This document shows positions 1,870 to 34,933 of a stretch of DNA of 64,000 nt, one piece after another; the first letter of the stretch is position 1, and each line of letters starts with the position of its first letter. Source of the DNA: Anaerolineae bacterium (GTDB taxonomy: Bacteria; Chloroflexota; Anaerolineae; B4-G1; DUEL01); the NCBI GenBank assembly GCA_049972045.1, contig JBMFKS010000003.1, positions 9,723-73,722 of the forward strand. The letters run 5' to 3'. The notes below the pieces were generated by a model. It worked only from the letters and a program-made list of their open reading frames with translations. It was not told where the DNA came from and made no database searches. Made by a program: the position numbers and the translations under genes.

Positions 1870-4872
<3,003 letters not shown>

Positions 4873-4874
4873 CG

Positions 4875-4905: not shown

Positions 4906-5060
4906 CTGGTAACGCTTCCCTAACTGTTTTGTAACTGTTGACAGAAGTGCGAAATTTAAGGATCGTGTTATAATTGGAGTGGTTCGGTTCGTGATGGGCG
5001 GGGAAAGGGGAATTTTGTGGCGGAGGGAATTTCTCCACCTGCACAGGAGATAGCCTGGGC

Positions 5061-5441: not shown

Positions 5442-5456
5442 GGTTGGGAGGCACCG

Positions 5457-5873
5457 ATGCCACCGCTAAACCCGCAGGATGTCACCGTTCTGGTAATTGA
5501 GGACAACCTGAACAACTTCCTGCTTATGGCCCGCCTGCTGGCGTTTGTTGGGGTGGGGCGCTGCGAGTGGAAGGCTTCCGGCTGGCAGGTGCTGGAGTAC
5601 GCTGAGACGTTGCCGCGCATAGACCTGATTTTGATGGACATTTTCCTCCCGGAGCGGGATGGCTATGAGGCTCTGAGCCTGCTGCGATCGCATCCTCGCT
5701 TCAAAGACGTTCCCATTATTGCGATCACGGCGGATGCCAGTGTGGAGAGCATGGAGCGGGCTCGCCAGGCTGGATTTAATGGTTTCATTGGCAAGCCGAT
5801 AGACCCGGACCGGTTTCCAGAGCAAATTTGGCGCATCCTGCGGGGTGAGCCCGTTTGGGACCCGGGGATATAA
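5457..5873 (+). CDS. Single-domain response regulator (receiver)
   Basis: VLVIEDNLNNFLLMARLL...LILMDIFLPERDGYEAL...ITADASVESMERARQAGFNGFIGKP is a REC fold. It lies 16 nt after the previous REC gene. Confidence 0.85.
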   Translation: MPPLNPQDVTVLVIEDNLNNFLLMARLLAFVGVGRCEWKASGWQVLEYAETLPRIDLILMDIFLPERDGYEALSLLRSHPRFKDVPIIAITADASVESMERARQAGFNGFIGKPIDPDRFPEQIWRILRGEPVWDPGI

Positions 5874-6008
5874 CCGGGTCTCCTTATTCGGGTCGAAAAG
5901 CCCTTCCTTTCCCGTGAACTGCGGAAGTCCTGCTTTTAAGCACTCTCCGCTGGGGTGGTGGTTACTCGTGGCGAGTGTGACCCATCCCGCGATCAGCGAG
6001 TAGCGAAA

Positions 6009-13977: not shown

Positions 13978-16289
13978 ACATCCAGATGAGCGCATTCTGG
14001 ATTGACCTGATTGTCTACGGGGCAGTGGCGGTGATCTCCGCTGTGCAGATTCTCGTTGTCCTGGGAGCGGGTATCCGGCGGCGGGTGAACCTGCTCTTTG
14101 CTTGGATGATGCTGATGATTGCCCTGTGGACGGGTACCGCTGTGGTGCTCCGGGTTTCCCTCTGGCGGGTCTGGCAGGCAGGGCCGGTTCAGCAGTTCTG
14201 GATGGAAATCTCTTCGCTGGCATTCCTCCTGATCGCCCCGCTGATGCTGGCCTTCAGTGCGGCCTATATAGAGACAAAGGCCCGCTGGCCCTACTGGCTC
14301 AGCCTTCTGGGGCTGGCGGGAATCGGCCTTTTTGCCGTTCCTCTTTTCCGCCATCAGGTAGTCTATAATGTCCACATCACCCCTTCCGGAGTAATATCCT
14401 GGGACCGTACGCCGCTCGCTTTCATCCTCTCTCTGCCCCAGACGGTTGGTCCGATTCTGAGCCTGGTTTTGCTGTGGCAGGAGCGGCGAATCCGGGATTA
14501 CTCCCTGATGGCGGCTTTCACTCTGATGCTGGTCTCTTCTCTGCTTTTTTCCGTCATTCAGGTGAACTTTCCATCCCTCAGCCTGACGACCCTGGTCGTG
14601 GTGGTGCTTCTGGCCTACGCGGTGCTGAACCGCCAACTCTTTCGCCCCCTGCGGGAGTTGACCCGGGAGTTGGAGAAGCGGGTGGAGGAGCGGACCCGGG
14701 AACTGGCGGAAACCTCCCTCCGCCTGCAGGAGGCCAACCGCGATCTGGCCCGCCGGACAGCCCAATTGGAAGCCGCTTCCGCAGTGGCCCGCCGTGCGGC
14801 CGAAATCCACGCTGTGGATGCTCTGCTGAACGAGACCGTTCGCCTCATCTCCGACCGCTTCGGCTTCTACCACGCGGGCATCTTCCTGATAGACGAAGCC
14901 CGGGAGTACGTCGTCCTGCGGGCCGCCTCGTCCGAGGGCGGGCAGCGGATGCTGGCCCGGGGCCACCGGCTTGCCGTCGGCGAGGAAGGGATCGTCGGCT
15001 ATGTGGCGGGGACGGGAAAGCCGCGGATCGCGCTGGACGTGGGCGAGGACGCGGTTTTCTTCAGCAACCCTGACCTCCCCCACACCCGCTCGGAGATGGC
15101 GTTGCCGCTGAAGGTGGGGGAGCAGGTCATCGGTGTGCTGGACGTCCAGTCGGTGGAGCCCTCCGCATTCACCGATGAGGATGTGACGGTCCTGCAGACG
15201 ATGGCCGATCAGATTGCCCTGGCCATTGAGAATGCCCGTCTGCTGGCGGAAGTCCAGGACCGCCTGCGGGAGGTGGAGACCCTGAGCCGGGAGTATGTCC
15301 GCCGGGAGTGGGAGCAGATGGTCTCCGAGCGGCCCGGCTGGGGGTACATCTACGACGGCGTAGAGGTGAGGCCCCGGGAGCGGGTTTCTCCTCCCGAAGG
15401 GGTTTCGCCGGGTATCACGGTCCCCTTGCAACTGGCAACAGGCGAGACCATCGGGCAAGTGGCGCTGGCTCTCCCCCATCGGCCTCCCACCGACGAGGAC
15501 GTGGCCCTGGCTCAGGCAGTGGCCCAGCAGGCCGCGCTGGCGTTGGAAAGCGCCCGCCTCTTCCAGGAGACCCGGCGGACGCTGGAGGAGATGGAATCCC
15601 TGTTCCGGGCCAGTGAGGCGATCAACACGGCCAGCACCCCCGATGACGTCCTGCGTGCATTTGTGGACCACGTGGTCCCGCCCCAGATTGACCGCTGTGT
15701 ATTGGCGCTCTTGGACCCCGAGAGTCCTTCAGAGGAGATGGCGGTGGATGCGGTGGCGGCCTGGGATCGGGGGAAGGAACGATCGCCTTCCCTGGGCCGC
15801 CGCTGGAGCATAGCTCAGATTCCCTTCATCGCCCGACGGTCTACGGAGCCGGTGGTCATATCGGACGTGGCGACATATCCAGACGTGGACGAGGTATCCC
15901 GATATGTGTTCATGAACGTCCTGGGGGTTCGGGCGGTCCTGGGAATCCCGCTGGTGGCCGGCGGGCGGCTCCTGGGCTGGCTGATGGTGGAGTCCCTCAC
16001 CAGACCCTACGAATTCAGCGAGCGGGAAGTCCGCCTCTACCGGACGCTGGCCGACCAGGCCGCGCTGGCGCTGGAGCGAATGCGCCTCTTTGAGGAGACC
16101 CGGCGCCGGGCGGAATGGGAGCGCATTCGCGCCGAGGTCGCCGCCCGCGTGCGCGCCTCTACCGACATAGAGACCATCCTGCGCACCGCCGTTCGGGAAA
16201 TGGGGCGGGCCTTCCGGGCGGCGGAGGGGGTCATCCAGTTGCACGGAGGGGACGGCCGGAAGGAGGGGGAATGGAGCAAGACGTCGTGA
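13974..16289 (+). CDS. 7-8 TM N-domain + coiled coil + 3-4 GAF domains (output-less sensor)
   Basis: The ATG at 13974 overlaps the upstream stop as ATGA. The N-terminal ~330 aa are hydrophobic. The rest contains LRELTRELEKRVEERTRELAETSLRLQEANRDLARRTAQLEAA and the conserved GAF cassette FGFYHAGIFLIDEAREYVVLRAASSEGG... Confidence 0.8.
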   Translation: MNIQMSAFWIDLIVYGAVAVISAVQILVVLGAGIRRRVNLLFAWMMLMIALWTGTAVVLRVSLWRVWQAGPVQQFWMEISSLAFLLIAPLMLAFSAAYIETKARWPYWLSLLGLAGIGLFAVPLFRHQVVYNVHITPSGVISWDRTPLAFILSLPQTVGPILSLVLLWQERRIRDYSLMAAFTLMLVSSLLFSVIQVNFPSLSLTTLVVVVLLAYAVLNRQLFRPLRELTRELEKRVEERTRELAETSLRLQEANRDLARRTAQLEAASAVARRAAEIHAVDALLNETVRLISDRFGFYHAGIFLIDEAREYVVLRAASSEGGQRMLARGHRLAVGEEGIVGYVAGTGKPRIALDVGEDAVFFSNPDLPHTRSEMALPLKVGEQVIGVLDVQSVEPSAFTDEDVTVLQTMADQIALAIENARLLAEVQDRLREVETLSREYVRREWEQMVSERPGWGYIYDGVEVRPRERVSPPEGVSPGITVPLQLATGETIGQVALALPHRPPTDEDVALAQAVAQQAALALESARLFQETRRTLEEMESLFRASEAINTASTPDDVLRAFVDHVVPPQIDRCVLALLDPESPSEEMAVDAVAAWDRGKERSPSLGRRWSIAQIPFIARRSTEPVVISDVATYPDVDEVSRYVFMNVLGVRAVLGIPLVAGGRLLGWLMVESLTRPYEFSEREVRLYRTLADQAALALERMRLFEETRRRAEWERIRAEVAARVRASTDIETILRTAVREMGRAFRAAEGVIQLHGGDGRKEGEWSKTS

Positions 16290-17266: not shown

Positions 17267-19153
17267 ATGGAGCAAAGGATTCCGATCTCGCGAACCCCAA
17301 ACACCCTGGGCGGACGGCTGGCCGGCCTGGCCCTAATTCTCATCCTGATCGTACTGGCCGGCGGGGTGGTCGTCATCCGCCAGTTAATCCGCATCCGCGA
17401 CGCGGTGATCGCGATGCAGGAAGCCTCTACCCATATGGAGATGGCCCTCTCATCGGCCCACCAGACGACCGAACTGGTGCTCAATGTCCGGGAAGGCGTG
17501 GGCCAGGGACTGGGCGGGGCGGAATTGAACCAGCGGCTGGCTCCGTATCTGGTCACCCTGGAGACCCAGCGGCAGGCGCTGCAGGTAGAGGCGGAGCATC
17601 TTCCTCCCGGGAGTGACCTCCAGGCTCGGATGGCTACCGTGGGGACGGTTCTGGGAAACGTGAGCGGCGTGGCCCGCCAGATTCTCCAGGCGGTGGAACA
17701 GGAGGACCGGACTTGGGCCCGCTATCTGCTGGCCCAACTGAGTGTGAATCACCGACTGGTGGAACAAGAGACCATCCAACTGGTCGTGCTGGCCCGGGCG
17801 CGCCATGAACAGGCCCAGGCAGAGGCCCGCCTGGCCGCGCGACGGGTGCTTATCGTGGTCCCATTGGCGACGGTGGCGGTGATTCTGGTCGCGGCCGGGG
17901 CGGCCGTTCTGCTCCTGAGGGGGGTGGTCACCGGGGTCCGCATGCTCTCCGACTCCGCCGGGCAGTTGGCGGTGGGCCGCCTGGAGACCCGGGTGCCGGA
18001 GCGGGGATTGGAGGAGTTCCGCTTCCTGGCCCGGACCTTCAACAATATGGCTTCCGAACTCCAGCAACTGTATACCGGCTTGGAACGGCTGGTAGCCCGG
18101 CGCACCGCCGATCTGGCCCGCCGGACGGCCCAACTGGAAGCCGCTGCCTTCGTCGCCCGCCGCGCCGCCGAAATCCGCGATGTGGACACGCTTCTCAACG
18201 AGACCGTCCGCCTCATCTCCGACCGCTTCGGCTTCTACCACGCGGGGATCTTCCTGATAGACGAGGCGGGGGAATATGCCGTTCTGCGGGCGGCTTCTTC
18301 GGAGGGTGGGCGGCGGATGCTGGCCCGGGGCCACCGGCTGGCAGTGGGGAAGGTGGGCATCGTCGGCACCGTGGCGGGGACCGGCAGGCCCCGCATCGCG
18401 CTGGACGTGGGAGAGGATGCCGTCTTCTTTGACAATCCCGACCTGCCGCTGACCCGTTCGGAGATGGCGGTGCCGTTGAAGGTGGGAGACCGGGTCATCG
18501 GCGTGCTGGATGTGCAGTCCGTGGAGCCGGAAGCCTTCACGGACGAGGACGTGGCGGTCTTGCAGACGATGGCCGACCAGATCGCCCTGGCCATTGAGAA
18601 CGCCCGACTCCTGGAGGAGAGCCGCCGGGCACTGGAGGAACTGGAACGGTTGTACGGGGTGCGGGCGCGGGAAGCCTGGGAAATCGTGGCATCTTCTCGC
18701 CCGGCTGTTTACCGCTATACCGGAACGGATGTGGAACCGCTTCCAGCGCCGGTTCCGCCGACCGGTGAGGGGGATGGTCGCCATCTGACCGTGCCCATCC
18801 GCCTCTGGGGCCAGGCCATTGGCTCCATCCTGCTGCAACGCACGGAGGAGCAACCTCCCTGGTCGCCGGAGGAGCGGCAGTTGGGGGAGGAGATCGGGGA
18901 GCAGATCGCCCTGGCGCTGGAGAACGCCCGCCTGATCGCGGAGACGGAGAGCCGGGCCGCCCGGGAGCGGATGCTGGCCGAGATGACGGCCCGCCTGACT
19001 CGTTCGCTGGATATAGATGCCCTTCTGGATGCAGCGGTCCGGGAACTGGCCCGGCTGCCGGAGGTGGCGGAGGTGGCCGTCTATGTGGGCGGGCAGGAAG
19101 TATCATCCCCGCTCTCCCGAGAGCCCGGGCGGCGGGAGAGAGGGCGCGGGTAA
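17267..19153 (+). CDS. Membrane sensor protein: TM-helical periplasmic domain-TM-HAMP-S-helix-GAF-GAF, no output domain
   Basis: Two TM helices flank a ~170-aa helical domain. A HAMP domain (MLSDSAGQLAVGRLETRVPERGLEEFRFLARTFNNMASEL) is followed by the conserved GAF cassette and a second GAF-like region. Confidence 0.8.
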   Translation: MEQRIPISRTPNTLGGRLAGLALILILIVLAGGVVVIRQLIRIRDAVIAMQEASTHMEMALSSAHQTTELVLNVREGVGQGLGGAELNQRLAPYLVTLETQRQALQVEAEHLPPGSDLQARMATVGTVLGNVSGVARQILQAVEQEDRTWARYLLAQLSVNHRLVEQETIQLVVLARARHEQAQAEARLAARRVLIVVPLATVAVILVAAGAAVLLLRGVVTGVRMLSDSAGQLAVGRLETRVPERGLEEFRFLARTFNNMASELQQLYTGLERLVARRTADLARRTAQLEAAAFVARRAAEIRDVDTLLNETVRLISDRFGFYHAGIFLIDEAGEYAVLRAASSEGGRRMLARGHRLAVGKVGIVGTVAGTGRPRIALDVGEDAVFFDNPDLPLTRSEMAVPLKVGDRVIGVLDVQSVEPEAFTDEDVAVLQTMADQIALAIENARLLEESRRALEELERLYGVRAREAWEIVASSRPAVYRYTGTDVEPLPAPVPPTGEGDGRHLTVPIRLWGQAIGSILLQRTEEQPPWSPEERQLGEEIGEQIALALENARLIAETESRAARERMLAEMTARLTRSLDIDALLDAAVRELARLPEVAEVAVYVGGQEVSSPLSREPGRRERGRG

Positions 19154-19168
19154 GAACAGGGGAGCACT

Positions 19169-19774
19169 ATGAGGGTGACGACGTATCCGGAGGTCAAAAC
19201 CCCGGAGCAGATTCTCTACGAGTGGTTTGCCGAGCGGGTCTGGGAGGAGGACCTTTATCTGGAACTGGCGAACCGGGGGAACGTCTATGTGGAACTGGAC
19301 GACGGGAGGATCGTGTTTCCGATGATGCCGACCGTGCTGCACCAGATGGTCGTCCTGAACCTGGCCACCGCCCTGCGGGCGTACGCGCGCTCGCTTCCCG
19401 CACCCGGCCGGGTGTTGATCGCTCCGACGCCGATCCGTCTCTGGCCCCTGAAGATTCGGGAGCCCGATGTGGTGTTCTATAGGGCCGAACATCTGGACCG
19501 GGTGGGCGAGCAGGTGAGCGGGGTGCCCGATTTCGTCGCCGAGGTCCTTTCGCCGTCCACCCTGGCGCTGGATACCGGGCAGAAGATGGTGGAATATGCC
19601 CTGGCGGGCATCCCCGAGTACTGGCTGGTGGACCCGGACCGCCGGACCGTTGCCGTCTATGTCCTGGAAGGGACGGGTTACCGTCTGGCCGGAGAATACG
19701 GTGTCGGTCAGCGGGTAGCGGCGCAGACTCTGCCCGGCTTTTCGCTGGATGTGGATGAACTCTGGATGCCGTAA
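19169..19774 (+). CDS. Uma2-family (DUF820) restriction-endonuclease-fold protein
   Basis: GVPDFVAEVLSPSTLALDTGQKMVEYALAGIPEYWLVDPDRRTVAVY is the Uma2 signature. It starts 15 nt after the GAF-gene stop. Confidence 0.85.
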   Translation: MRVTTYPEVKTPEQILYEWFAERVWEEDLYLELANRGNVYVELDDGRIVFPMMPTVLHQMVVLNLATALRAYARSLPAPGRVLIAPTPIRLWPLKIREPDVVFYRAEHLDRVGEQVSGVPDFVAEVLSPSTLALDTGQKMVEYALAGIPEYWLVDPDRRTVAVYVLEGTGYRLAGEYGVGQRVAAQTLPGFSLDVDELWMP

Positions 19775-19789
19775 CGTTGCCCATCATGG

Positions 19790-20983
19790 ATGACCGAGGT
19801 GAGCCCGATGGAGACCTATGATGTCATCATCGTCGGTGCCGGCCCGGCGGGCCTATCCACGGCATTGCACCTGCAGCAGATGTCGCCCGATCTGGCCTCC
19901 CGGACTGTAATCCTGGAAAAGGCCCGTCACCCGCGCCCGAAACTCTGCGGTGGGGGGGTTCTGCCCGATGGAGAGATGGTTCTGGCGGATTTGGGCCTGG
20001 ATGTGGCCGAAGTGCCCTCTATGGAGGCAGTTTTCTCCTGCTTTGTTTTTGAGGATAGGGGGGCATGTCTGCGCGGAACGGCCCCTTACGCTTTTCGTGT
20101 TTTCCGCCGGGACGAGTTTGATGCCTGGCTGGCGCGCAAAGCGATGGAACGGGGACTGGACCTGCGGGAGGAGATACCGGTAATCGGGGTAGTTCCCGGC
20201 GACCCGTATGTGGAGATCATCACCGCCAGAGGTACCTACCGGGCCCGGGTAGTAGTCGCGGCGGATGGTGCGCACAGTCGGATCCGGCGGGTGATAGAAG
20301 ACCGCCGCAGGTCGCACTATATCTATGCGCTCTCCACGGTGACTCCGCCTCTTCCGGACGGGTCCTCTCATCGCCCGGAGCAGGCGTATTTTGACTTTAC
20401 CGCGATTTCCCGTGGCATACCCGGCTATATCTGGGACTTTCCCACTCAGGTGGAAGGGCAGCCGATGCGTTCCTGGGGGATTTACGACAGCAACACAGGG
20501 AGCCGGGACCCCCGTCGGAAGCAGGAACTCCTGGCAGCCGAAATGGCGCGACAGGGGTATCGGCTGGAGGAGTTTCCCCTGCAGGGGGAATCGGTCTACG
20601 CGTTCAGCCCGCGCAACGTCTTCTCCGCGCCGCACATTTTGCTGGTTGGCGATGCCCTGGGCGTGGAGAAAATGTTCGGTGAAGGGGTCAGCCCAGCAAT
20701 CGGGTGCGGCCGGATCGCAGTGGAAGCGATTGTGGACGCTTTCGCCAAGGGAGATTTTTCGTTCAAGGACTATCGGAGGCGTGTGTTGACCAGCGAGGTG
20801 GGGAAGGCCCTGACGGCGCGGGTCTTTCTTGCTGAAGTTCTCTACCGTGTCCGGAATCCCGTTGTTCAACGTTTCGTCTGGTGGCGGATGGGACGGCTTA
20901 TGAAATGGGGCGTTCAGCATATCCTGGCCAACTGGGCGGAGCGTGGTCGGAAAGCCCAGGGGAAGCCGCATCGGGAAGGCTAA
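19790..20983 (+). CDS. FAD-dependent oxidoreductase, geranylgeranyl-reductase-like family
   Basis: YDVIIVGAGPAGLSTALHL is a dinucleotide-binding GxGxxG motif. The protein is ~390 aa. Confidence 0.8.
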   Translation: MTEVSPMETYDVIIVGAGPAGLSTALHLQQMSPDLASRTVILEKARHPRPKLCGGGVLPDGEMVLADLGLDVAEVPSMEAVFSCFVFEDRGACLRGTAPYAFRVFRRDEFDAWLARKAMERGLDLREEIPVIGVVPGDPYVEIITARGTYRARVVVAADGAHSRIRRVIEDRRRSHYIYALSTVTPPLPDGSSHRPEQAYFDFTAISRGIPGYIWDFPTQVEGQPMRSWGIYDSNTGSRDPRRKQELLAAEMARQGYRLEEFPLQGESVYAFSPRNVFSAPHILLVGDALGVEKMFGEGVSPAIGCGRIAVEAIVDAFAKGDFSFKDYRRRVLTSEVGKALTARVFLAEVLYRVRNPVVQRFVWWRMGRLMKWGVQHILANWAERGRKAQGKPHREG

Positions 20984-21028
20984 CAACCGGCCTGCTGATT
21001 GTAGCGGAAGGAGAGGCTGGAGGAAAGG

Positions 21029-22789
21029 ATGGACAAAAGCAAACTTCGTCGGTGGTGGGAACGCCTGATAGCAGTGAACGTCCCGGATGAGGAAGAAGCC
21101 CGACTGGGCCGCCTGTTCAACACCCTTATGGTTATTTCCGTAGGAGTAGTTTTGGTTCTTAGCTTCAATTTCATCCTCGTGTGGCTTCTGGGGTACACTC
21201 CCTTGGCTCCCGCATTCATTGGGGCGGCGTTCCCCTGGTCCTTCATCCCGCTGAGCCTCTTTTGCCTCTTCCAGGCCAAAAGAGGACGGGTCCGCCAGAT
21301 GATCACGCTGTATGTCTGGACACATTTCCTTGGAGTCGCTCTGGCAGTCTTTTTGTTTGAAGGCATCCGTTCGGCCGGCTGGCTTTTGTTCAGTGCGACG
21401 ATTATCATCGCTGGAATGTTAATTCGCCCCGATTACGCCCTCCGTGTGGCGGGCTTGGTGCTGGGATACTACTTTGTCCTGCTTGTTCTGACTCTACTGG
21501 GAATCTACACACCGCCGCTGACTACTGGGCCACAGGGACAGGTCTTTTCCACAATGTTTGTGACTTTGCTGATGCCTGTCCTGACGGTTGCCGTGCTGAC
21601 CTACCTGAACACCCGCAGCCTGCAGGATGCTCTGAGTCGCCTGCGGTTGACCAGCCGGGAACTGGAGGAGCAACGACGCACGCTGGAGGACCAGGTCGCT
21701 GCCCGCACCGCCGACCTGGCCCGCCGCACGGCCCAACTGGAGGCGGCGGCCACTGTGGCCCGGCGGGCCGCCGCCATCCGGGATGTCCAGGCCCTGCTGG
21801 ATGAGACCGTCCGCCTCATCTCCGACCGCTTCGGCTTTTACCACGTGGGCATCTTTCTGCTGGATGAACGGGGAGAGTACGCCGTCCTCCAGGCGGCCTC
21901 CTCCGAGGGCGGGCAGCGGATGCTGGCCCGGGGCCACCGATTGCGAGTGGGGGAAGGCGGCATCGTGGGCCATGTGGCGGGGACCGGCCAGCCCCGCATC
22001 GCGCTGGACGTGGGCGCCGATGCCGTCTTCTTTGACAACCCCGACCTGCCGCGGACCCGTTCGGAGATGGCGCTGCCGCTGAAGGTGGGGGAGCGGGTCA
22101 TCGGCGTGCTGGATGTGCAGTCGGAGGAGCCGGCGGCCTTCACGGATGAGGACGTGGCGGTCCTGCAGACGATGGCCGACCAGATCGCCCTGGCCATTGA
22201 GAACGCCCGCACACTGGAACAGATGGAGCGGACGGTGCAGGAACTGGAGCGGGTCTACGGGGAGTACACTCGGGAGGCCTGGCAGACGGTCCGGCAGGCC
22301 CGTCGGTGGGTGGGCCGCCGCTATCGCCGCCTGGTCCCCGAATCGGCAGAAGAACTGACCGAAGAGGCCCGCCGGGCCCTTTCGGAGGGCCGTTCGGTCC
22401 TGCAGCCCCTGCGGGAAGAAGGCGATGGCCGGGTGACCGGCACCCTCCTGGCCGTCCCGATGAAACTGCGGGGCCAGGTCATCGGCGCGCTGAACCTGCG
22501 TTTTGCCGCCCCGGAGGTGCCGCCGGAGGCCGTTCAGATGGTGGAAGCCATCGCCGACCGGCTGGCCCTGGCGCTGGAAAACGCGCGCCTCCTGGAGGAG
22601 ACCCGCCGTCACGCCGAGCGGGACCGGAGGATCGCCGAAATCACGGCGAAGGTGCGGGCCTCTATGGACCCGGAGACCATCCTGCGTACGGCCGCACGGG
22701 AACTGGGAGCCGCGCTGGGGGTGGACCGGGTGGTGGTGCATATGAGCCCGCCTCCCTCTCTCCGAAGAGATGAGAGAGATACGGAGTAG
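21029..22789 (+). CDS. Polytopic membrane N-domain + coiled coil + GAF-GAF (output-less sensor)
   Basis: There are ~6 TM helices. The coiled coil (LEEQRRTLEDQVAARTADLARRTAQLEAAATVARRAAAIRDV) is followed by the conserved GAF cassette. Confidence 0.75.
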   Translation: MDKSKLRRWWERLIAVNVPDEEEARLGRLFNTLMVISVGVVLVLSFNFILVWLLGYTPLAPAFIGAAFPWSFIPLSLFCLFQAKRGRVRQMITLYVWTHFLGVALAVFLFEGIRSAGWLLFSATIIIAGMLIRPDYALRVAGLVLGYYFVLLVLTLLGIYTPPLTTGPQGQVFSTMFVTLLMPVLTVAVLTYLNTRSLQDALSRLRLTSRELEEQRRTLEDQVAARTADLARRTAQLEAAATVARRAAAIRDVQALLDETVRLISDRFGFYHVGIFLLDERGEYAVLQAASSEGGQRMLARGHRLRVGEGGIVGHVAGTGQPRIALDVGADAVFFDNPDLPRTRSEMALPLKVGERVIGVLDVQSEEPAAFTDEDVAVLQTMADQIALAIENARTLEQMERTVQELERVYGEYTREAWQTVRQARRWVGRRYRRLVPESAEELTEEARRALSEGRSVLQPLREEGDGRVTGTLLAVPMKLRGQVIGALNLRFAAPEVPPEAVQMVEAIADRLALALENARLLEETRRHAERDRRIAEITAKVRASMDPETILRTAARELGAALGVDRVVVHMSPPPSLRRDERDTE

Positions 22790-25700
22790 GTGGCAAGGGA
22801 TGATCCGAAACAGAGTCCGTCCAGACTGGCTGCTGCTGAACCGATACCTTTCGCGCTGGGGAGACCGGTATATCGGGCGTGTGACGGCCCTGGCCGAATT
22901 GGCCTCAGTGCTGGCCGCTGCGCTTAGTATTTATTACATCTCAGCCACCATCGTGTTGAGCCAGAGGGAGATCTGGGGGCTGATTCTGCTGGTCGGTGTG
23001 CTGGTCTTCCTGGCCAATGGGTCGGGTCTTTTCTACGCCCTGCGGGCGACGGCTCGTGTGCGAAGAGCCCTGCGGGATGGAGGCTCCCTGCCCGTCGGGG
23101 AGGAGGAGCTCATCCTCCGGGAAGCAACATCGTTTCCCTGGCGTTTTGCACGCTTTGCGTTTGTCAATACGGTCCTGGTCGTCGTTGTCCCGGGCCTGGC
23201 GCTGGCCTATGTGCTGATCGGTATTCGGCTCTCCAACCTACCGTACCTCTTCGTCGGCGGCCTTGTGGCTACTATATGGATCTCCATTTATTACTACTTT
23301 GTGCTGGAATGGCTTTTCTGGCCAGTGCGCCAGGTGCTGTTCTCCCGTTCCGCTGGGCTGCACCAGCGCCATCTGGCAGGGCCAGGCATTCAGGCCCGTA
23401 TGCTGGTGGTCTACATAATTTTGCTGGCTACGACCCTTTTGATGGTCGGAACTCTCGTCTATCGCAAGAGCGAGCAGGCGGTAGCACCGGGAGCCAACCC
23501 TATCCTGGTTCTGCGGAGCATGCAGGGCCACATCCTGTTTATCGGGCTGATGAGCCTGTTTTTGGGTGTGGGATTCTCCGTCCTGCTGGCGCGCATGGTC
23601 GCCCGCCCCATCCGGCGGCTGATGGACACGATGGCTGAGGTGGAAAGGGGAGACATGAGCCGCCGAGGCGAACTCCTCTCCACCGATGAAACCGGGCACC
23701 TGACCCTCGCGTTTAACCGGATGATCGGCCAGTTACAGATGCTCCAGATGGGCCTGGAGGAAGAAGTAACCCGGCGCACCGCCGACCTGGCCCGCCGCAC
23801 GGCCCAACTGGAGGCCGCTGCCTTCATCGCCCGCCGCGCCGCCGAAATCCGCGATGTGGACACGCTTCTCAACGAGACCGTCCGCCTCATCTCCGACCGC
23901 TTCGGCTTCTACCACGCGGGGATCTTCCTGATAGACGAGGCGGGGGAATATGCCGTTCTGCGGGCGGCTTCTTCGGAGGGTGGGCGGCGGATGCTGGCCC
24001 GGGGCCACCGGCTGGCAGTGGGGAAGGTGGGCATCGTCGGCACCGTGGCGGGGACCGGCAGGCCCCGCATCGCGCTGGACGTGGGCGCCGATGCCGTCTT
24101 CTTTGACAACCCCGACCTGCCGCGGACCCGTTCGGAGATGGCGCTGCCGCTGAAGGTGGGGGAGCGGGTCATCGGCGTGCTGGATGTGCAGTCGGAGGAG
24201 CCGGCGGCCTTCACGGACGAGGACGTGGCGGTCCTGCAGACGATGGCTGACCAGATCGCCCTGGCCGTTGAGAACGCGCGGCTGCTGGAGGAAACACGGC
24301 GAGCGCTGGAGGAACTCCGCACCCTCTATGGGGAGCGTCTCCGCGAGGCCTGGGAACGGCTGGAAGGTTTCCCGCCCGCCCTGGTCTACGACCGCGTGAC
24401 GGTTACCCCCATGGAAGCCCCACCGCCCGTCCCGGCGGTGGAAGAGGCCCTGCGGCAGGGGCAGGTCGTCGCTCTCAGCGAGCCGGATAACGGCCGGGCC
24501 GTCATCGCCGCACCTCTCCGCCTGCACGACCAGGTCATCGGCGCCATCGCCCTGGAGGAAACCGACCAGGCCCACCCCTGGACGGAAGACGAGGTGGCCC
24601 TGGTCCAGGCCGTCAGCGAACAGGTGGCCCTGGCGCTGGAGAGCGCCCGCCTCTACCAGATGGAACAGCGCCGCCGCTTCATCGCTGACACTCTGCAGGA
24701 GATCGCCCGCGTCGTCGGCTCCACGCTGGACCTGGAGGAGGTCACCAACCGGCTGCTGGACCAACTGGAGCGCCTCATCCCCTTTGATGTCGCCGTCATT
24801 CACTTGCTACGCGGGGAACGGCGAGAGATCGTCGGCGGGCGAGGGATGAACTTGGAGGCCATGCGGCGGTGGCTGGAGAAACAGCCGCCCGTCTCCCAGG
24901 ACCCGCTGCTGGCAGAGGTCATCCGGACCCGCGCGCCCGTGATCATCGCCGATGCCCAGACCGACCCGCGCTGGAGGCGCCCCAGGGCCCGCTCCGGTAT
25001 GGCCGTCCCCCTGATCTTGGGTGAGGAAGTCATTGGCTTCCTGCTGGTGGACCACCCCAGGCCGGGGATGTACACCGAAGAGACGGCCGCGCTGGCAACC
25101 GCCGTGGCCGCCCAGGCCGCCGTCGCCGTCCAGAACGCCCGGCTGTACGAAGAGGCCCGGCGGGGCGCCGACCAGATGCAGGCCCTCTACGAGACCGGCC
25201 GCGCCCTCTCCTCCACGCTGGACGTGGATCAGGTCATCCAGACCGTCCTGGAGACGGTTTCCCGGCTGATGGGCTGCGAGTTTGCCATCATCTCGCTGGT
25301 GGATGAGGGGGAAGGCACCATCGGCTTCAGCCACGGCATCTGGGAGGGGGTGTTTGACCGGTATCCGGAGTGGGTAGACAAGTCCCGGTATCCCCTGGAT
25401 CATCCGGACATCATCGCCGATGTATACCGGACGGGCCGTACGGAGATTCTCACCGGCTGGGACGACCGCTTCAACCGGGAGATCTGGGAGAAGTACGGCC
25501 ATGAGCGCTACCTGCGGGTCTTCCTGCCCCTCCGTTTCCAGGAACGGACCATCGGCGTGGTGGAGGTCAGTTGGGACCGGAGCCGAAAGGCGCGGGTGAC
25601 CGAGGAGGAACTGCGGCTGCTCTCCACGCTGATGGACCAGGCCGCTATCGCCATTCAGAATGCCCGTCTCTACGCCGAGGCGCGGGAGCGGGCAATGGAG

Positions 25701-26891
25701 CAAGAGGGCCTGGCCCGGATCGCCGCCCTGGCCGTCTCCACGCTGGAACTGGAGCCCCTGCTGGAGGGGATGATGCGGGAGGCGGCCCCGCTGGTGGAGG
25801 CCGAGGGCGCGGCGCTGTTGCTCTACGATGAGGATACTCGCTCCCTGCGAACTCGCCACGTCCTGATACAGGGCGAATTCCTTCCCATTGCGCCAGGGTG
25901 GGAAATCCCGCTGGAAACGCCGGGGATGGAACAGAGCATCTTCGCCCGGGGCGGGGTTTATTACTCCAACCTGGGTCTGAGTGACCCCAATCTGATCCCG
26001 GCCTACGTCCCGCATATGGAACAACTGGGCGTCCGCAACTTCTGCGGCGTGGCCCTGCGGGTGCGGGACCGGAGCATCGGCGAACTCTATTTCATCAATC
26101 GCCCTCGCGGTTTCGGGTGCGATGAGGTCCGTCTTGCCCGGGCTATCGCAGGCTACATCGCCAACGCGCTGGCCCATGCCCGCCTCTTTGAGGAGGCCCG
26201 CCTGCGGGCCGAAGAATTGGCCGTCCTGAACGAACTGGGCCAGGCCCTCACGGCCCAACTGGACGTGCAGCAGGTGCTGGAAGAGGCCTACCGGGGTGCC
26301 AGCCGCCTGCTGGATACCACCAACTTCTATATTGCCTTTTACGACCTCCAGCAGGGGATAGTGAGTTTCCCCCTGTCTGTGGAGGAGAATGAACGACGTC
26401 CCTATCGCACTCGCCCCTTTGCCAACGGCCTGACGGAGTACATCCTCCGGAACCGGAAACCGGTGCTGATAGAGGAGGATCTGCCTGCCCGTCTGCAGGA
26501 GATGGGGGTGGATATGGTCGGTCGGCCGGCTCAATCCTGGCTGGGCGTGCCGCTGATGGTGGGCGATGAGGTGCTCGGGGTGATGGCGGTGCAGAGTTAT
26601 ACCACGCCGCGGGCGTACGACAAGCACGACCTGGACCTGTTGACTGCGGTTGCCAGCCAGGTAGCGATCGCCCTGCAGAACGCGCGCTCCTACGAAGAGG
26701 CCCGGCGGCGGGCGGAACGGGAGCATCTGGCCCGGCAGATTGTGGAGCGGATCCAGGCCGCTCCGGATGTGGAAAGCGTCCTCCAGGTGGCGGTGCGGGA
26801 ACTGGGGCGCGCCCTGCGAGTGCCGCGATCCTTTGTCCAACTGGGAATTCCCGAAGGGGGCGATGGCCAGACCCCGCCAACGGGGGCGTGA
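22770..26891 (+). CDS. Large membrane sensor: TM region-HAMP-S-helix followed by ~6 GAF domains, no output domain
   Basis: The N-terminal 270 aa are hydrophobic. A HAMP domain (MVARPIRRLMDTMAEVERGDMSRRGELLSTDETGHLTLAFNRMIGQL) is followed by repeated GAF-like units with LALAxENARL motifs. It overlaps the previous gene end, and an alternative start lies at 22800. Confidence 0.8.
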   Translation: MREIRSRWQGMIRNRVRPDWLLLNRYLSRWGDRYIGRVTALAELASVLAAALSIYYISATIVLSQREIWGLILLVGVLVFLANGSGLFYALRATARVRRALRDGGSLPVGEEELILREATSFPWRFARFAFVNTVLVVVVPGLALAYVLIGIRLSNLPYLFVGGLVATIWISIYYYFVLEWLFWPVRQVLFSRSAGLHQRHLAGPGIQARMLVVYIILLATTLLMVGTLVYRKSEQAVAPGANPILVLRSMQGHILFIGLMSLFLGVGFSVLLARMVARPIRRLMDTMAEVERGDMSRRGELLSTDETGHLTLAFNRMIGQLQMLQMGLEEEVTRRTADLARRTAQLEAAAFIARRAAEIRDVDTLLNETVRLISDRFGFYHAGIFLIDEAGEYAVLRAASSEGGRRMLARGHRLAVGKVGIVGTVAGTGRPRIALDVGADAVFFDNPDLPRTRSEMALPLKVGERVIGVLDVQSEEPAAFTDEDVAVLQTMADQIALAVENARLLEETRRALEELRTLYGERLREAWERLEGFPPALVYDRVTVTPMEAPPPVPAVEEALRQGQVVALSEPDNGRAVIAAPLRLHDQVIGAIALEETDQAHPWTEDEVALVQAVSEQVALALESARLYQMEQRRRFIADTLQEIARVVGSTLDLEEVTNRLLDQLERLIPFDVAVIHLLRGERREIVGGRGMNLEAMRRWLEKQPPVSQDPLLAEVIRTRAPVIIADAQTDPRWRRPRARSGMAVPLILGEEVIGFLLVDHPRPGMYTEETAALATAVAAQAAVAVQNARLYEEARRGADQMQALYETGRALSSTLDVDQVIQTVLETVSRLMGCEFAIISLVDEGEGTIGFSHGIWEGVFDRYPEWVDKSRYPLDHPDIIADVYRTGRTEILTGWDDRFNREIWEKYGHERYLRVFLPLRFQERTIGVVEVSWDRSRKARVTEEELRLLSTLMDQAAIAIQNARLYAEARERAMEQEGLARIAALAVSTLELEPLLEGMMREAAPLVEAEGAALLLYDEDTRSLRTRHVLIQGEFLPIAPGWEIPLETPGMEQSIFARGGVYYSNLGLSDPNLIPAYVPHMEQLGVRNFCGVALRVRDRSIGELYFINRPRGFGCDEVRLARAIAGYIANALAHARLFEEARLRAEELAVLNELGQALTAQLDVQQVLEEAYRGASRLLDTTNFYIAFYDLQQGIVSFPLSVEENERRPYRTRPFANGLTEYILRNRKPVLIEEDLPARLQEMGVDMVGRPAQSWLGVPLMVGDEVLGVMAVQSYTTPRAYDKHDLDLLTAVASQVAIALQNARSYEEARRRAEREHLARQIVERIQAAPDVESVLQVAVRELGRALRVPRSFVQLGIPEGGDGQTPPTGA

Positions 26892-26942: not shown

Positions 26943-27737
26943 ATGGAACGCCGCATCACTGCAATGGACACCAGCATTCCCAACGCCGGCCGGGTCTATG
27001 ACTACGTCCTGGGCGGCACTCACAACTTTGAGGCAGACCGGCAGGCCGCCGAATATATGATCAGCCTGGTTCCCTCTACCCGCAAGTGGGTCCGCATGCT
27101 GCGGATGTTCATGCAGGAATCGGTGCTTCGGCTCAGCGAGGAGGGGTTTGGTCATTTCCTGGACCTGGCCTCCGGCCTGCCAACGGTGGAGCACATCCAC
27201 GCGCTCGCGCCCCACGCCAAGGTAATCTATGTGGATAACGACCCGGTGGTCGTGGCCTACGGCACCCAGTTGCTGGAAGGACATCCTAATGCCCGCTACC
27301 TGGAAGCCGATATTCGCGACATTGATGCCCTCCTGCGCTCGCCGGTCATTTCCGAAATGTTCGGAGAGGAACGGAAGGTGGCGATCGGCTTCAACGCGGT
27401 CACCTGCTTTTTGACCGAGGAGGAAATCCGCCGGATCGCTCGGGCGCTCTACGAGTGGGCGGCGCCGGGGAGCAAGTTGTTCGCCACCTTTGAGACCAAA
27501 GACCCCCATCGGATAACGCCGAAGATGGAGCAGTTTCTGGCGATGTTTGACCAGATGGGGAGCCCTTATCACTTCCTGACCCTGGAGCAAGCTATGGAGT
27601 GGATGAAACCCTGGGAGGCCGATGAGCGAGGATACCGGCCCCTGGCAGAGTGGTTGGGCATGCCGGATCAGATCACTGAGGCCGACCGAGAAGGGGTGGG
27701 ACTGGAGTTTTACGGGGCCATCCTGGTCAAACGATGA
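26943..27737 (+). CDS. SAM-dependent methyltransferase (actinobacterial-type SAM_MT / PF04672-like)
   Basis: MERRITAMDTSIPNAGRVYDYVLGGTHNFEADRQAAE... matches this family's N-terminal hallmark. AAGGAGG lies 7 nt upstream. Confidence 0.7.
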   Translation: MERRITAMDTSIPNAGRVYDYVLGGTHNFEADRQAAEYMISLVPSTRKWVRMLRMFMQESVLRLSEEGFGHFLDLASGLPTVEHIHALAPHAKVIYVDNDPVVVAYGTQLLEGHPNARYLEADIRDIDALLRSPVISEMFGEERKVAIGFNAVTCFLTEEEIRRIARALYEWAAPGSKLFATFETKDPHRITPKMEQFLAMFDQMGSPYHFLTLEQAMEWMKPWEADERGYRPLAEWLGMPDQITEADREGVGLEFYGAILVKR

Positions 27738-28199: not shown

Positions 28200-31100
28200 A
28201 TGGAATCTCAGGGGACGGACCGTCTGGAACTTCTGGAGAGAGTAGAGAACCACAAATCATTCCTGCAGAAGCGGGTGGAAGAAGCTCTGCGTCGCAACGT
28301 GTTTCACAACACCGCCCGCATGGCCTCCCTCCGTCCGTTGCCAGAGGTGGCCCGGTTCTTGGTGGAGATGTTCCTCCAGGAGGTGGCGGGCACCCTGCAG
28401 GTTGAAGACTGCTCCCAGCGTGTGAGCGAATGGGTGCGGTTGGGTTTGAGTGCCCAATCCGTGGCGGAGGCCTTTACCACCCTTTCCCGGGTCTTATCGG
28501 AAGTCCTGGATGGGGACTCCTTCAAGGCCGTCCTTCCCCATCTGGAAACCTACCGCTCCCGCTGGATCCTCACCCTGGTAGATACTCGCACCCAGGATGC
28601 GATCACCGAGTTTGAACGGACCTACCGGGGCCTGAACGTAGCCCTGGAAGAACAAATCCAGCGAGAACGGGAGGCTCGGGCCGAACTCCAACGCCGTCAG
28701 GTTCAACTCCAGGCAGCGGCCAATATCGCCCGCGTGGCGACCTCCATCCTGGACCTGCCCACCCTTCTGCAGACCGCCGTGGACACGCTTTGCCAAGAGT
28801 TTGGCCTCTATTACGTGGGCCTTTTCCTGGTGGACGAGGCTGGCCGGTACGCGGTCCTGAAAGCCGGTACAGGGGAAGCGGGTCGGAAGATGGTGGAGGA
28901 AGGCTACCGGCTGGAGGTTGGGGGACACTCCATGATCGGCTGGTGCATCGCCCATCGCCAGCCGCGCATCGCTTTGGATGTCGGTGCGGACGCTGTCCGC
29001 TTTGAGAACCCTCTGCTTCCCAACACCCGGTCCGAACTGGCAATCCCGCTGATCGTGGGTGAGGAGGTCGTCGGCGCACTGACGATCCAGAGCGAGCGGG
29101 AGGCCGCCTTCTCGCCGGAAGACATCACGACCTTTGAGGTTGTGGCGGACCAATTAGCGGTTGCGATTCGGAATGCCCGGTTATTTGAGCAGTTCCAGGA
29201 AACCCTCCGGCAGATGGAGGCGACCCAGGCTCGTTACATCCGGCAGGAGTGGGCTACTTATCTCAGCCGTTGGCCGGAGCACCCCGGGTACCAGTATGAC
29301 CTGGAGACGGTCTCCCCGCTTCTCCAGCCTGTTCCCCTTCCGGTCGTGGAGATGCCTCTGGACCGCCCGCTGGTCACCGAGTCGGATGGGCGTTCCCTCC
29401 TGATGGCCCCTGTTCTGATCGGCAAGCAGCCCATCGGCCTGCTGGGATTGGAAGAAACCGACCCTCGGGTCTGGACAGAAGACGAACTGGCCCTCATCAC
29501 GACGGTCCAGGAGCAACTGGCGCTGGCCCTGGAAAACCGTCGCCTCTTTGAGCAGACCCGCCAGGCTCTGGCGGAGACAGAAATGCTCTATCAGGCCAGT
29601 GCGGAACTGAACGCTGCCCAATCCTACGAGGAAATCCTGGCCGTCCTGCAAAAATACACCCTGGTTGGCGAGGCCGACCGCAACGTGAGCCTGAACCTCT
29701 ACAACCGGCCGTGGGTGGGGGAGGATGTCCCGGAATGGAGCATCCCTGTGGCCCGCTGGACCCGCTTGCCGTCGGAGGCTCTGAGCGACCGGTATCCTCT
29801 GCGCGCTTTCCCCTCCGCCGCCTGTCTGCTCCGACCGGATGCTCCCACCCTGATTTCCGATGTGAGGAATGACCCCCGGATGGACGAGCGGGCTCGGGCG
29901 CTGTATCAGGACCGCTTCCAGGCGGGCAGCACCATCTTCGTCCCGCTCGTGGTGGCTGGGCAGTGGATCGGCTATGTCAACGCGATCTACAGCATGCCCC
30001 GCGAGTTCCCGGAGGATGCGGTTCGGCGCCTGATGTCCCTGGCCGCGCAGGCCGCCGTCGCCGTTCAGTCCATTCGCCGCCTGGAGGAAGTGCGCCAGGC
30101 CCTGACCGAGACGGAAGCCCTCTATCAGGCCGCCCGGGCTATCAGTGAGGCGACATCGGTGGAGGAGATTGTGCGCGGCGCGGCGATGGTCGCCCGGCCC
30201 CTCGGCTTCACTGCCTGCTCCCTTACCCTCGCCACCCTCACCGACCCGGATGGTATCCCCACTCACGGCGATATCTACCCGGTGATCGCGGCCGGAGGGG
30301 ACTGGATGGCCATGCCGCCGATGCACGCCTTCCCCATCGCCGACCGGAAGGCTGCCCGCCGGGTGCTGGACGAGCCCGACTTCGTCCTGGTCTACGCCGA
30401 CGTAGAGGACCCCAGCGCGGATATTCCCGACCCGGTTCGGGAGACCACCCGCAACATGGGGATGCGCGGGATGGTCACTGCCGGGTTGACCATCTTCGGG
30501 CGGGCGCTGGGCTTCCTGAGTTTCATCAGTCCCCATCCGCTGACCGGTCTCTCCGAGGAAAACATCCGCCGCATCCGCACCGTCGCCGACCAGGTCGCGG
30601 TGGCGCTGGAGAACCGCCGCCTGCTGGAGGAGACCCGTCGGCGGGCAGCCCAACTGGCCACCGCCGCCGAAGTCTCCGCGGCCGCGTCGTCCATTCTCAG
30701 CCTGGAGGAACTCCTCCCGCAGACGGCCGAACTCATCCGCCAGCGGTTTGACCTCTACTACGTCGGGATCTTCCTGCTGGATGAGACGGGCCGCTGGGCG
30801 GTGCTCCGGGCCGGCACCGGCGAGGCCGGTCGCCAGATGCTGGCCGCCGGCCACAAACTGGAGGTCGGTGGAAAATCCATGATCGGCTGGTGCACGGCCA
30901 ACGCCAAAGCCCGCATCGCGCTGGACGTGGGCACGGAGGCCATCCGCTTTGATAACCCGCTCCTGCCCAACACCCGCTCCGAGATGGCCCTGCCGCTCAT
31001 CTCCCGGGGCCGGGTCATCGGCGCGATGACCATCCAGTCCGATCGGCCCGCCGCTTTCACCCAGGAGGACATCATCGCCCTGCAGACGATGGCGGATCAG

Positions 31101-34100: not shown

Positions 34101-34235
34101 AAAGAATTGACGGAGAAGGACCGGCAGGCGCTCAACCATCGGATTGAGGCGTTGATCCAGAAGGGGGTTCTGCAGAGAGAGGAGTTGCTGGAGGACGTGG
34201 CGGCGGCGTTGCGCAAACTGGCGCGGGTCGCCTGA
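28200..34235 (+). CDS. Giant cytoplasmic hybrid histidine kinase: ~8 GAF domains-HisKA-HATPase-REC-REC
   Basis: This 2011-aa ORF has repeated GAF cassettes ([28 protein letters not shown]..., [28 protein letters not shown]...). The H-box is [19 protein letters not shown] and the G-box is [37 protein letters not shown]. Two receiver domains follow (VLCVDDDEG...[20 protein letters not shown]...[10 protein letters not shown]). There is no TM segment. Confidence 0.9.
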
Positions 34236-34925: not shown

Positions 34926-34933
34926 GGTTCACC

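Follow-up and report, generated by a model that had tools for sequence, protein, structure and literature searches.

Concerted evolution of the first GAF cassettes of three tandem sensor genes in an Anaerolineae genome: evidence for interlocus gene conversion

The locus

The window is a stretch of 64,000 nucleotides of a MAG contig assigned to an Anaerolineae bacterium. We name four of its GAF genes A, B, C and D, and we use W for the copies found in the window genome. Genes B, C and D are tandem paralogous sensor genes on one strand, and they share a cassette of ~550-600 nt that covers the last part of the S-helix together with the first GAF domain. The genes and their cassettes, in window coordinates, are:

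13698..16289, + strand: gene A, GAF protein (Pfam GAF)
14725-15318, + strand: cassette of gene A, an unconverted paralogue that served as internal outgroup
17267..19153, + strand: gene B (ORF), with membrane N-module, HAMP, S-helix, GAF and then a second, weaker stretch that resembles GAF
18092..18686, + strand: cassette B, S-helix end and first GAF, in the same register as D (offset 5674)
21029..22789, + strand: gene C (ORF, Pfam), with a distinct N-module, cassette C and a GAF-like part at the C-terminus
21695..22289, + strand: cassette C, in the same register as D (offset 2071)
22800..26891, + strand: gene D (ORF, Pfam), with N-module, HAMP and six GAF stretches
22800..23765, + strand: N-module and HAMP of gene D, of the type we call X (BLASTP)
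23766..24360, + strand: cassette D, mosaic

The GAF domains match Pfam profiles (PF01590 / PF13185 / PF13492) at 1e-25 to 1e-97, above the curated cut-offs. The HAMP profile match is above its curated cut-off in B and D, and the same Pfam profile search finds no HAMP match in gene C. In gene B the matches are HAMP at 216-267 and GAF at 304-444, and its orthologues are L1_8087 and L2_7416. The ORF of gene D opens at 22770 and its annotated start is at 22800; the product is 100% identical to NCBI MGC9081729.1. Exact-protein look-ups of B and of D, each translated from its first ATG, had no hit; the annotated start of D is 10 codons further in. Genes B and D have no output domain, and we describe B, C and D as output-less. 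A search of solved structures with the GAF domain returned remote relatives only (E>=1e-5), without a clue to the ligand.

Distances of 2.1-5.7 kb separate the B, C and D cassettes, whose identity to each other exceeds 80%; the core of the gene A cassette is 78-80% identical to B, C or D. For comparison, we took the syntenic loci of three further species-level genomes of Chloroflexota (Thermoflexales-like), all of which contain the same cassettes. Cassette C and its tail have as orthologues the X genes of L001, L002, L003 and L006. The N-module of gene C (aa 1-205) has as its sole match the N-module of L2_A, at 48%.

Identical tracts in cassette D

An earlier note on this DNA had proposed that the first GAF cassette of gene D is a patchwork of segments of two neighbors. 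Self-BLAST of the window confirms the tracts, and they are arranged as follows:

18153..18411, + strand: B copy of the 259-nt B=D tract, invariant in strains L011, L012 and L010
21991..22176, + strand: counterpart in C of the C=D tract, 186 nt long, with a single mismatch at 22147 (= D 24218)
23775..23815, + strand: exact C=D run of 41 nt at the left edge, where B differs at 3 sites
23827..24085, + strand: B-like tract of D, 259 nt, about the first 60% of the GAF domain
24062..24085, + strand: 24-nt block shared without difference by B, C and D, site of the switch from B-like to C-like
24086..24247, + strand: C-like tract of D past the switch, 162 nt, about the last 40% of the GAF domain, one mismatch at 24218

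Self-BLAST and base-by-base comparison give an exact run of 259 nt between B 18153-18411 and D 23827-24085, where about 250 nt had been noticed at ~18164-18413 and ~23842-24081, positions that were right to within ~15 nt. Over the longer ungapped alignment of B 18092-18642 with D 23766-24316 the identity is 94.6%; the background identity over the cassette, between B and C, is 83%. The second exact run, of 156 nt, joins C 21991-22146 to D 24062-24217, and it is followed by one mismatch at 24218 and then 29 identical bases up to 24247. For this single-mismatch tract, the earlier reading of D (24070-24221) was right, and that of C (22009-22160) was about 10 nt off, the register being C = D - 2071. 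In strain L011+L008 all 186 nt of the C=D tract are exact. The run at 23775-23815 carries little information, since this region is conserved throughout the copies. Farther downstream, a patch of 15 substitutions at 24917-24959 has no donor among the compared sequences.

How unexpected are these runs? We permuted the polymorphic sites 10,000 times, in the manner of GENECONV. The W B-D run has 67 consecutive concordant polymorphic sites vs. a permutation maximum of 35, and the W C-D run has 34 vs. a maximum of 15. With P<1e-4 for both, chance is excluded, and the tracts are longer than the overall divergence predicts. Pairs that include A show no significant tract in the same test (P 0.41-0.72).

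Synonymous sites tell us at which level the identity arose. In the B=D tract dS is 0 over 73 synonymous sites, and in the C=D tract it is 0.024. Within the same tracts, orthologues have dS of 0.34-0.94 and unconverted paralogues of ~0.6. The right flank has dS of 0.93-1.1; divergence of the flanking regions at many synonymous sites had been noticed earlier. Homogenization therefore reaches synonymous sites, and it acts on the DNA and not via protein constraint.

The trees agree with this. For the B=D tract, neighbor joining groups (W_B,W_D) with 100% bootstrap, (L1_B,L1_C,L1_D) with 100% and (L6_B,L6_C) with 88%; for the C=D tract it groups (W_C,W_D) with 99% and (L1_C,L1_D) with 100%. The right flank (24248-24360) sorts by orthology instead, with bootstraps of 100% for A and 96% for C, and so does the cassette of gene A, both in the identity matrices and in the segment trees. 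Tracts that cluster by genome next to a flank that clusters by orthology constitute an incongruence of topology.

Other species and other strains

In two of the three other species, different paralogue pairs are significantly homogenized. As an example, the C'-D' pair of L001 has 88 concordant polymorphic sites over ~343 nt (P<1e-4, permutation), and its B'-D' pair also has P<1e-4. For L002, the permutation test reports no significant tract. The highest within-genome identities between paralogues are 94.6% (W, B-D), 94.1% (L001, C-D) and 90% (L006, B-C and B-D), when orthologous cassettes are 83-89.5% identical and non-orthologous B/C/D pairs across genomes average 83.6%. The L001 tracts lie on a 462-kb contig, L006 comes from a JGI metagenome, and the projects are unrelated. 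We say that the B, C and D cassettes evolve in concert, by interlocus gene conversion, because the same process is seen independently in sister species in which other pairs are converted.

A scan of genome and metagenome contigs with the D N-module finds species-level relatives only (63-67% aa), none of them conspecific. Closer at hand, strain-level comparison shows that the mosaic is common to at least five near-identical MAG or metagenome assemblies (99.4-99.9%), whose contigs were drawn from a protein search and a cluster listing. At sites 24086/88/89/110, every B copy assembled in its own context reads AAGT and every such C copy reads CCCC; D reads CCCC in W, L007 and L008, and AAGT in L009. 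Since D varies among strains at 24086-24110 and B and C do not, we take D as the probable recipient, and the conversion as recent; a fixed B and C with a variable D fits a recipient D. The suggestion that conversion is recent and ongoing, and that D is a patchwork of a B-like and then a C-like tract, is supported by the one copy that is polymorphic among strains. In addition, W and L007 have a derived G in both copies, at D 24124 and at C 22053, where both copies have T in L011+L008 and in L009.

The direction of the main 259-nt B-D event, judged from outgroup sequences, is weakly indicated. The nearest outgroup to the B=D tract is L6_B with 23 differences, followed by L2_D with 30 and L6_D with 34. 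These distances are largely uninformative on direction because the outgroup cassettes have been homogenized too.

Alternative explanations

The source of the window is a MAG, and thus we need to ask whether the D path could be chimeric (D left flank, B, C, D right flank), or its differences collapsed, such that no single genome contains the identical tracts. Repeats of this kind do confuse assemblers, as sister assemblies break at the paralogous tracts or walk across them: the L011 contig ends exactly at 24085 and L008 starts 55 nt before that, contigs of L012, L013 and L010 end inside tracts, L009 carries an exact repeat of 2003 nt of its own sequence, and the path of L010 goes from B through a D-type tract into C. 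Bubble removal could merge single differences situated farther than a k-mer from the edge of a tract, and so inflate identity; the shared G at 24124/22053 could be mimicked in this way, and the perfect identity could be partly enforced by the assembler. A path jump requires exact shared k-mers, however, and no B=D run to the left of 23827 exceeds 16 nt. L007, L009, L010 and L011 all link the D-specific 23813 G and 23826 A to the tract; over 23766-24144, which includes the left junction of D and the tract, L007 has 0 mismatches and L011 has 1. Strains L011 and L009 have a D-specific SNP (23879 G) inside the tract, and the stop of L011 at precisely the point where B and D diverge is what a repeat truly present in the reads would produce. 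Moreover, analogous tracts between other paralogue pairs occur in MAGs of unrelated projects (L001, L006). We regard an assembly artefact as very improbable. Selective constraint on the protein, codon usage or mRNA structure could also be proposed to preserve the tracts by itself, without recombination, and the GAF domain is under purifying selection (orthologue dN/dS ~0.1-0.2). Yet orthologous synonymous sites vary freely in the very same tracts, the converted pair changes from species to species, and the identity stops abruptly with dS ~1 beyond; constraint alone is effectively refuted. A simple recent duplication is rejected, as the tracts lie internally, between flanks that are old on either side.

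A different question is how much of the mosaic was inherited. By BLASTP the N-module of D is 62-64% identical to those of the L1, L2 and L6 X genes, and its HAMP is 69-75% identical to theirs vs. 41-44% to the Y HAMP. In other species the X-type N-module and HAMP head the gene that carries cassette C. The body of D past ~24248 is Y-type, and therefore the junction lies within the cassette. Gene D might then descend from an unequal crossover between two cassettes, one in an X-type gene that runs from X N-module and HAMP through cassette C to the C tail, the other in a Y-type gene built of Y N-module, cassette D and multi-GAF body, so that the C-like edges at 23775-23815 and 24086-24247 would be remnants of the X cassette and only the central B-like tract would have been converted later. 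That no Y N-module occurs in the window speaks for this, as does the fact that all other database proteins covering at least 89% of the N-module-through-cassette query are X-type proteins of 659-709 aa. On the other hand, the D N-module differs from those of the other species at ~36-38% of its amino acids, which implies an old fusion, and an old fusion should have accumulated differences in C/D pieces that are almost identical. The strain variation of D at 24086-24110 requires a later exchange anyway, the remaining architecture is common to all strains, and the module upstream in C is unrelated to X, so that extra events would be needed. A partly inherited mosaic is unlikely as the account of the cassette, even if some C-like pieces of D could derive in part from an older X-Y fusion and not be fresh copies.

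A model of the exchange

Taking all this together, the first-GAF cassettes of the tandem genes B, C and D are very probably mosaic through interlocus gene conversion. The long tracts, the dS near 0, the incongruent trees and the independent homogenization in other species support the segmental conversion proposed from the window alone.

At their spacing and identity, the cassettes can template each other. We propose that they would act as mutual templates in homologous repair, presumably RecA-dependent, in which tracts of 150-350 nt are copied non-reciprocally. In the first GAF of D, B sequence would have overwritten 23827-24085, C sequence would occupy 24086-24247, and the change from B to C would fall within the 24-nt block common to the three copies. 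The outcome would be a D GAF that is a chimera of B and C, and three sensors with different N-modules and a near-identical first GAF. The more diverged cassette of A would no longer take part. We infer the enzymology, RecA or gap repair, and likewise the selective value of conversion, if any.

Conversion had also been put forward as a way of shuffling ligand-binding cassettes. What it chiefly does here is homogenize the cassette, not diversify it. There is shuffling, but of the N-terminal modules at the cassette boundary: the cassette is the junction at which N-terminal sensor modules differ between lineages. It is conceivable, and we offer this as a tentative idea, that the S-helix/GAF1 cassette is a conserved recombination hinge that re-assorts whole N-modules onto different signaling bodies, with conversion keeping the hinge cassettes alike. 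Under such a scheme, gene D would have received an X N-module and HAMP on a multi-GAF Y body, gene C a module otherwise seen only on L002 cassette A, here on an X body, and the Y N-module would have been lost in this species. Homogenized GAF1 domains might also permit mixed B/C/D dimers that would signal to the neighboring giant GAF histidine kinase, E (28200..34235).

Relation to known systems

The mechanism is known, and conceptually this is ordinary gene conversion in a new example. It does provide a well-documented natural case of domain-level concerted evolution in bacterial signaling proteins, in which one internal domain stays near-identical among adjacent sensors while the input modules diverge or swap, and this bears on the expansion and rewiring of large sensor families. 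The cassette trees follow the genome and not the gene, and therefore orthology and phylogeny of GAF-rich proteins call for caution. Six or more sister contigs are broken or wrongly joined at the tracts, which is a practical caution for metagenome assembly.

RecA-dependent gene conversion drives the concerted evolution of bacterial paralogues such as tufA/tufB in Salmonella and the rRNA operons. Concerted evolution and gene conversion among bacterial paralogues are reportedly the subject of a 2005 review by Santoyo and Romero. As in those cases, copying is between dispersed or tandem paralogues of one chromosome, where it would here too be non-reciprocal, paralogues are closer than orthologues, synonymous sites are homogenized, and the tracts are a few hundred nt. 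Unlike those cases, here one internal cassette is homogenized and the N- and C-terminal parts stay distinct, there are three partners, the converted pair differs between sister species, and the genomes are uncultured MAGs.

The pilE/pilS system of Neisseria and vlsE of Borrelia are cassette-based systems of antigenic variation, and they too build a mosaic expressed gene by conversion from neighboring homologous cassettes. Their donors are silent, promoterless and partial, and high programmed rates generate diversity. Here, each of B, C and D is a full-length ORF with its own start codon and is kept as an ORF in the three other species, and the net effect is homogenization; programmed cassette variation of that antigenic type is rejected.

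Our literature search brought up no earlier description of gene conversion between GAF or HAMP sensors in bacteria. The nearest case is that of Trypanosoma brucei, where TbrPDEB2 received the GAF-A domain of TbrPDEB1 by gene conversion (PMC2689650). The likeness is in the tandem paralogues (there ~2.4 kb apart), in a GAF segment being converted, and in the conversion being strain-specific. The trypanosome genes are eukaryotic phosphodiesterases with a catalytic output, in which a whole domain went into one allele; ours are output-less HAMP-GAF sensors of a bacterium, and the recipient GAF is chimeric from two donors. In methanogens, duplicated mtrA genes show long-lasting gene conversion (PMC4632066). 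That system differs in involving an enzyme subunit with two copies only, where we have a sensory domain, and it resembles ours in the persistent conversion of neighboring prokaryotic duplicates, in parallel in separate lineages.

The sensor gene array

Genes A to E form an array of GAF sensor genes, all on one strand. The cassette that concerns us, the end of the S-helix plus the first GAF domain, occurs in A to D; HAMP domains occur in B and D, and A to D all lack an output domain. Matches to solved structures are remote for these GAF domains, and do not indicate a ligand for the predicted GAF1.

Sensor genes in the window (all on one strand)
Gene A: 13698..16289; cassette 14725-15318
Gene B: 17267..19153; cassette 18092-18686
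Gene C: 21029..22789; cassette 21695-22289
Gene D: 22800..26891 (ORF from 22770); cassette 23766-24360
Gene E: 28200..34235; multi-GAF hybrid histidine kinase, outside this cassette set

The cassettes align in fixed registers (B = D - 5674; C = D - 2071). Between B and C lie a Uma2-family (PD-(D/E)XK) gene and a FAD-oxidoreductase gene (19169-20983), both confined to this species; in the related-species loci L001, L002 and L006 they are absent, and the next sensor gene directly follows B. Between A and B (16115-17215) there is a DUF3782 / PDDEXK_10 nuclease-family gene with internal tandem repeats (16430-16762; offsets 66 and 132 nt; copies 70-90% identical), which appears to be broken into two shorter ORFs in the sister-strain contig L011. 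Self-comparison of the window also reports an approximately 125-nt repeat with 90% identity between its copies (27920-28043, upstream of E, and 36895-37020), short-period arrays at 34923-35030 and 36798-36864, and direct and inverted repeats at 60149-60346, all unrelated to the GAF cassettes.

Identical tracts in the D cassette

The first GAF cassette of D had been described in an earlier note as a patchwork taken from two neighbours by recent gene conversion. The alignments bear out the patchwork, with tract coordinates that were correct to within 10-15 nt. B and D align without gaps across 551 nt at 94.6% identity, and their longest exact run is 259 nt (B 18153-18411 = D 23827-24085). For C and D the exact run is 156 nt (C 21991-22146 = D 24062-24217), followed, after a single mismatch at 24218, by another 29 identical bases up to 24247. 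The two tracts overlap at 24062-24085, which is identical in B, C and D, and it is within this block that D switches from B-like to C-like. At the left edge of the D cassette, C and D have 41 exact nucleotides in common (23775-23815). As background, B-C identity is 83%, and A is 78-80% identical to B, C or D over the cassette core.

To ask how surprising such runs are, we permuted the polymorphic sites 10,000 times in a GENECONV-style test, using the paralogue pairs of the window, L001 and L002. The window B-D pair has 67 concordant polymorphic sites in a row (permutation mean 13.8, maximum 35; P<1e-4), and the C-D pair has 34 (mean 6.3, maximum 15; P<1e-4), so both tracts are longer than chance would give, as the earlier note had expected; pairs that include A have no significant tract. 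By the Nei-Gojobori method, the B=D tract has 0 differences at 73 synonymous sites, and the C=D tract has a dS of 0.024. For the same segments, orthologues of other species have dS 0.34-0.94, and the same paralogue pairs directly to the right of the tracts (24246-24356) have dS 0.93-1.1, the synonymous divergence of the flanks that had been noticed before. Because dS is near zero in the tracts and high in both comparisons, the tract identity is a property of the DNA and not of protein constraint. The orthologue values rule out selection alone as what keeps the tracts identical.

The same cassettes in related species

Using the D N-module as query, we found syntenic loci in three other species-level Chloroflexota lineages: L001 (MAG Tumba.bins.32), L002 (Thermoflexales MAG-30) and L006 (a JGI metagenome contig), with 80-87% DNA identity to the window, plus short pieces from related genomes (L003-L005). 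Cassettes A, B, C and D are present in all three full loci.

Identity of paralogous cassette cores within genomes
Window B-D: 94.6%
L001 C-D: 94.1%
L001 B-D: 90.4%
L006 B-C: 90%
L006 B-D: 90%
L002 B-D: 87.6%

Orthologous cassettes are only 83-89.5% identical between genomes, and non-orthologous B/C/D pairs across genomes have a mean of 83.6%. In L001, the C-D pair has 88 concordant sites (about 343 nt; P<1e-4), and its B-D pair also has a significant tract (P<1e-4); in L002 the same permutation finds none. In neighbor-joining trees (300 bootstraps), sequences inside the tracts cluster by genome: for the B=D tract, B and D of the window (100%), B, C and D of L001 (100%), and B and C of L006 (88%); for the C=D tract, C and D of the window (99%) and of L001 (100%). 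The right flank (24248-24360) clusters by orthology (A 100%, C 96%). Paralogues more alike than orthologues, together with this conflict between tract and flank trees, point to classical concerted evolution by recurrent gene conversion. The cassette conversions are independent in several lineages; cassette A, which is more diverged, stands outside the exchange.

Strain variation and alternative explanations

NCBI MGC9081729.1, encoded on a 75-kb contig of an 'Anaerolineae bacterium' MAG, matches the D protein at 100% identity, and therefore the window is MAG sequence. Sister assemblies at 99.4-99.9% identity are L007, L011 with L008 (one MAG), L009, L010, and the JGI contigs L012 and L013. The left junction of D and its B-like tract recur in them, with 0 mismatches in L007 over 23766-24144. 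A private SNP (23879 G) in D of L011 and L009 implies that B and D were resolved there, at 258/259 identical. At sites 24086/88/89/110, wherever assembled in their own context, B reads AAGT and C reads CCCC; D reads CCCC in the window, L007 and L008, and AAGT in L009. Since D varies where B and C are fixed, D is the changing copy, hence probably a recipient. At least one exchange took place later than the split of these strains, about 0.5% diverged, which agrees with the conversion having been called recent. A derived G at the equivalent positions C 22053 and D 24124 is present in both copies in the window and L007, where both copies of L011/L008 and L009, and all other homologues, have T.

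Also in D, in its second GAF, 24917-24959 has 15 substitutions in 43 nt relative to L008 and L009, although identity to these strains is otherwise about 99.5%. Since the window version agrees with the L001 and L002 orthologues (94%), it is L008 and L009 that carry the derived patch. No donor turned up among the sequences compared; a short tract converted from a paralogue that was not sampled, or DNA imported from a different strain, may account for the patch.

Could the mosaic be an assembly artefact, even a chimeric walk? The same tracts visibly mislead assemblers in L008-L013. L011 stops exactly at 24085 and L008 starts 55 nt to the left of that point, an overlap that resembles a k-mer junction; L010, L012 and L013 terminate within tracts. 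Positions 1-2003 of L009 exactly repeat its 5675-7677 (window 22141-24143), which span the C tail, the D N-module and the B=D tract of this contig, and the sequence then goes on into the tail of B; this is either a graph mis-walk or a true 5.7-kb tandem duplication by unequal crossover of the B and D cassettes. (The junction yields a 675-aa 'hybrid' protein, P0124.) L010 8896-9500 runs from window B 18092-18411 through a D-type junction into C from 22015, that is, B N-module, B=D tract, C=D tract and C tail; it leaves out 3.6 kb (the B tail, the Uma2 and FAD genes, and the C N-module), and is either a true deletion variant or an assembly skip. Its junction sequence is identical to the D mosaic. 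An assembler could also merge isolated differences deep in the tracts, and the 'perfect' identity and the shared G at 24124/22053 are therefore provisional. Breaks at the tracts, however, mean that several samples have the shared k-mers in their reads, evidence against a pure artefact. Moreover, left of 23827 the B-D identical runs are at most 16 nt, yet L007, L009, L010 and L011 join D-specific sites to the tract. We consider a chimeric walk generating the entire mosaic unlikely, and an artefact of any kind very improbable.

A partial alternative is that the C-like edges of the D cassette were inherited from a fusion between X, the genes that carry cassette C in other species, and Y, the true D orthologues there. 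The N-module and HAMP of D are indeed X-type (over aa 1-325 they correspond to the modules heading X in L001, L002, L003 and L006, with 62-75% identity, and 41-44% to the HAMP of Y), and D becomes Y-like from about 24248. We regard such inheritance as improbable, if less so than an artefact, and prefer segmental gene conversion for the mosaic.

Re-assortment of modules at the cassette boundary

All other database proteins covering at least 89% of the query, N-module through cassette, are X-type (659-709 aa), and therefore the D architecture is derived. The Y N-module was not found in the window. The C N-module (aa 1-205; 21029-21643) resembles only that of L002 gene A (4795..7110), at 48%, and in L001 and L006 none of the genes A, B, X and Y has an equivalent; N-modules have thus been re-assorted among paralogues in different lineages. 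(L002 gene A itself lacks the N-module present on A of the window, L001 and L006.) The module junctions are located at the cassette start. This suggests, though with rather low probability, that unequal crossovers also use the cassette as their shared sequence when input modules are re-assorted.

In L001 (12092..20131) and L006 (12024..20126), D and the histidine kinase E are one ORF of 2679-2701 aa. The L001 junction is clean, directly after a GAF C-terminal helix (15989/15990; window counterpart region 26707-30092). The window and L002 have them as two genes, with a Methyltransf_19 gene (window 26943..27737) between. D may once have been the N-terminal half of a giant GAF kinase and have become detached, or the change may have gone the other way.

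Mechanism and comparison with known systems

The best explanation, which we hold to be quite probable from the sequences, is that a neighbouring paralogous cassette serves as template for homologous, presumably RecA-dependent, repair. Such repair would leave non-reciprocal tracts of 150-350 nt, and would place the B-like to C-like change of D in a block common to all three copies. Conversion would maintain cassette similarity, and similarity would maintain convertibility. The first GAF of D is in consequence a chimera, its first ~60% equal to B and its last ~40% equal to C, so that B, C and D combine different input modules with almost the same first GAF. Permutation, dS, tract and flank trees, and strain variation all favor the segmental conversion proposed in the earlier note, whose underlying observation of the tracts is confirmed.

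That bacterial paralogues undergo gene conversion and evolve in concert is well established, for example for tufA/tufB and rRNA operons. Our literature search found no report of gene conversion in bacterial HAMP-GAF sensors. Published cases include GAF-domain conversion between tandem phosphodiesterase genes of Trypanosoma brucei (PMC2689650) and long-lasting conversion of mtrA duplicates in methanogens (PMC4632066). The array in the window is an unusually clean new example of a known process, not a new kind of system.
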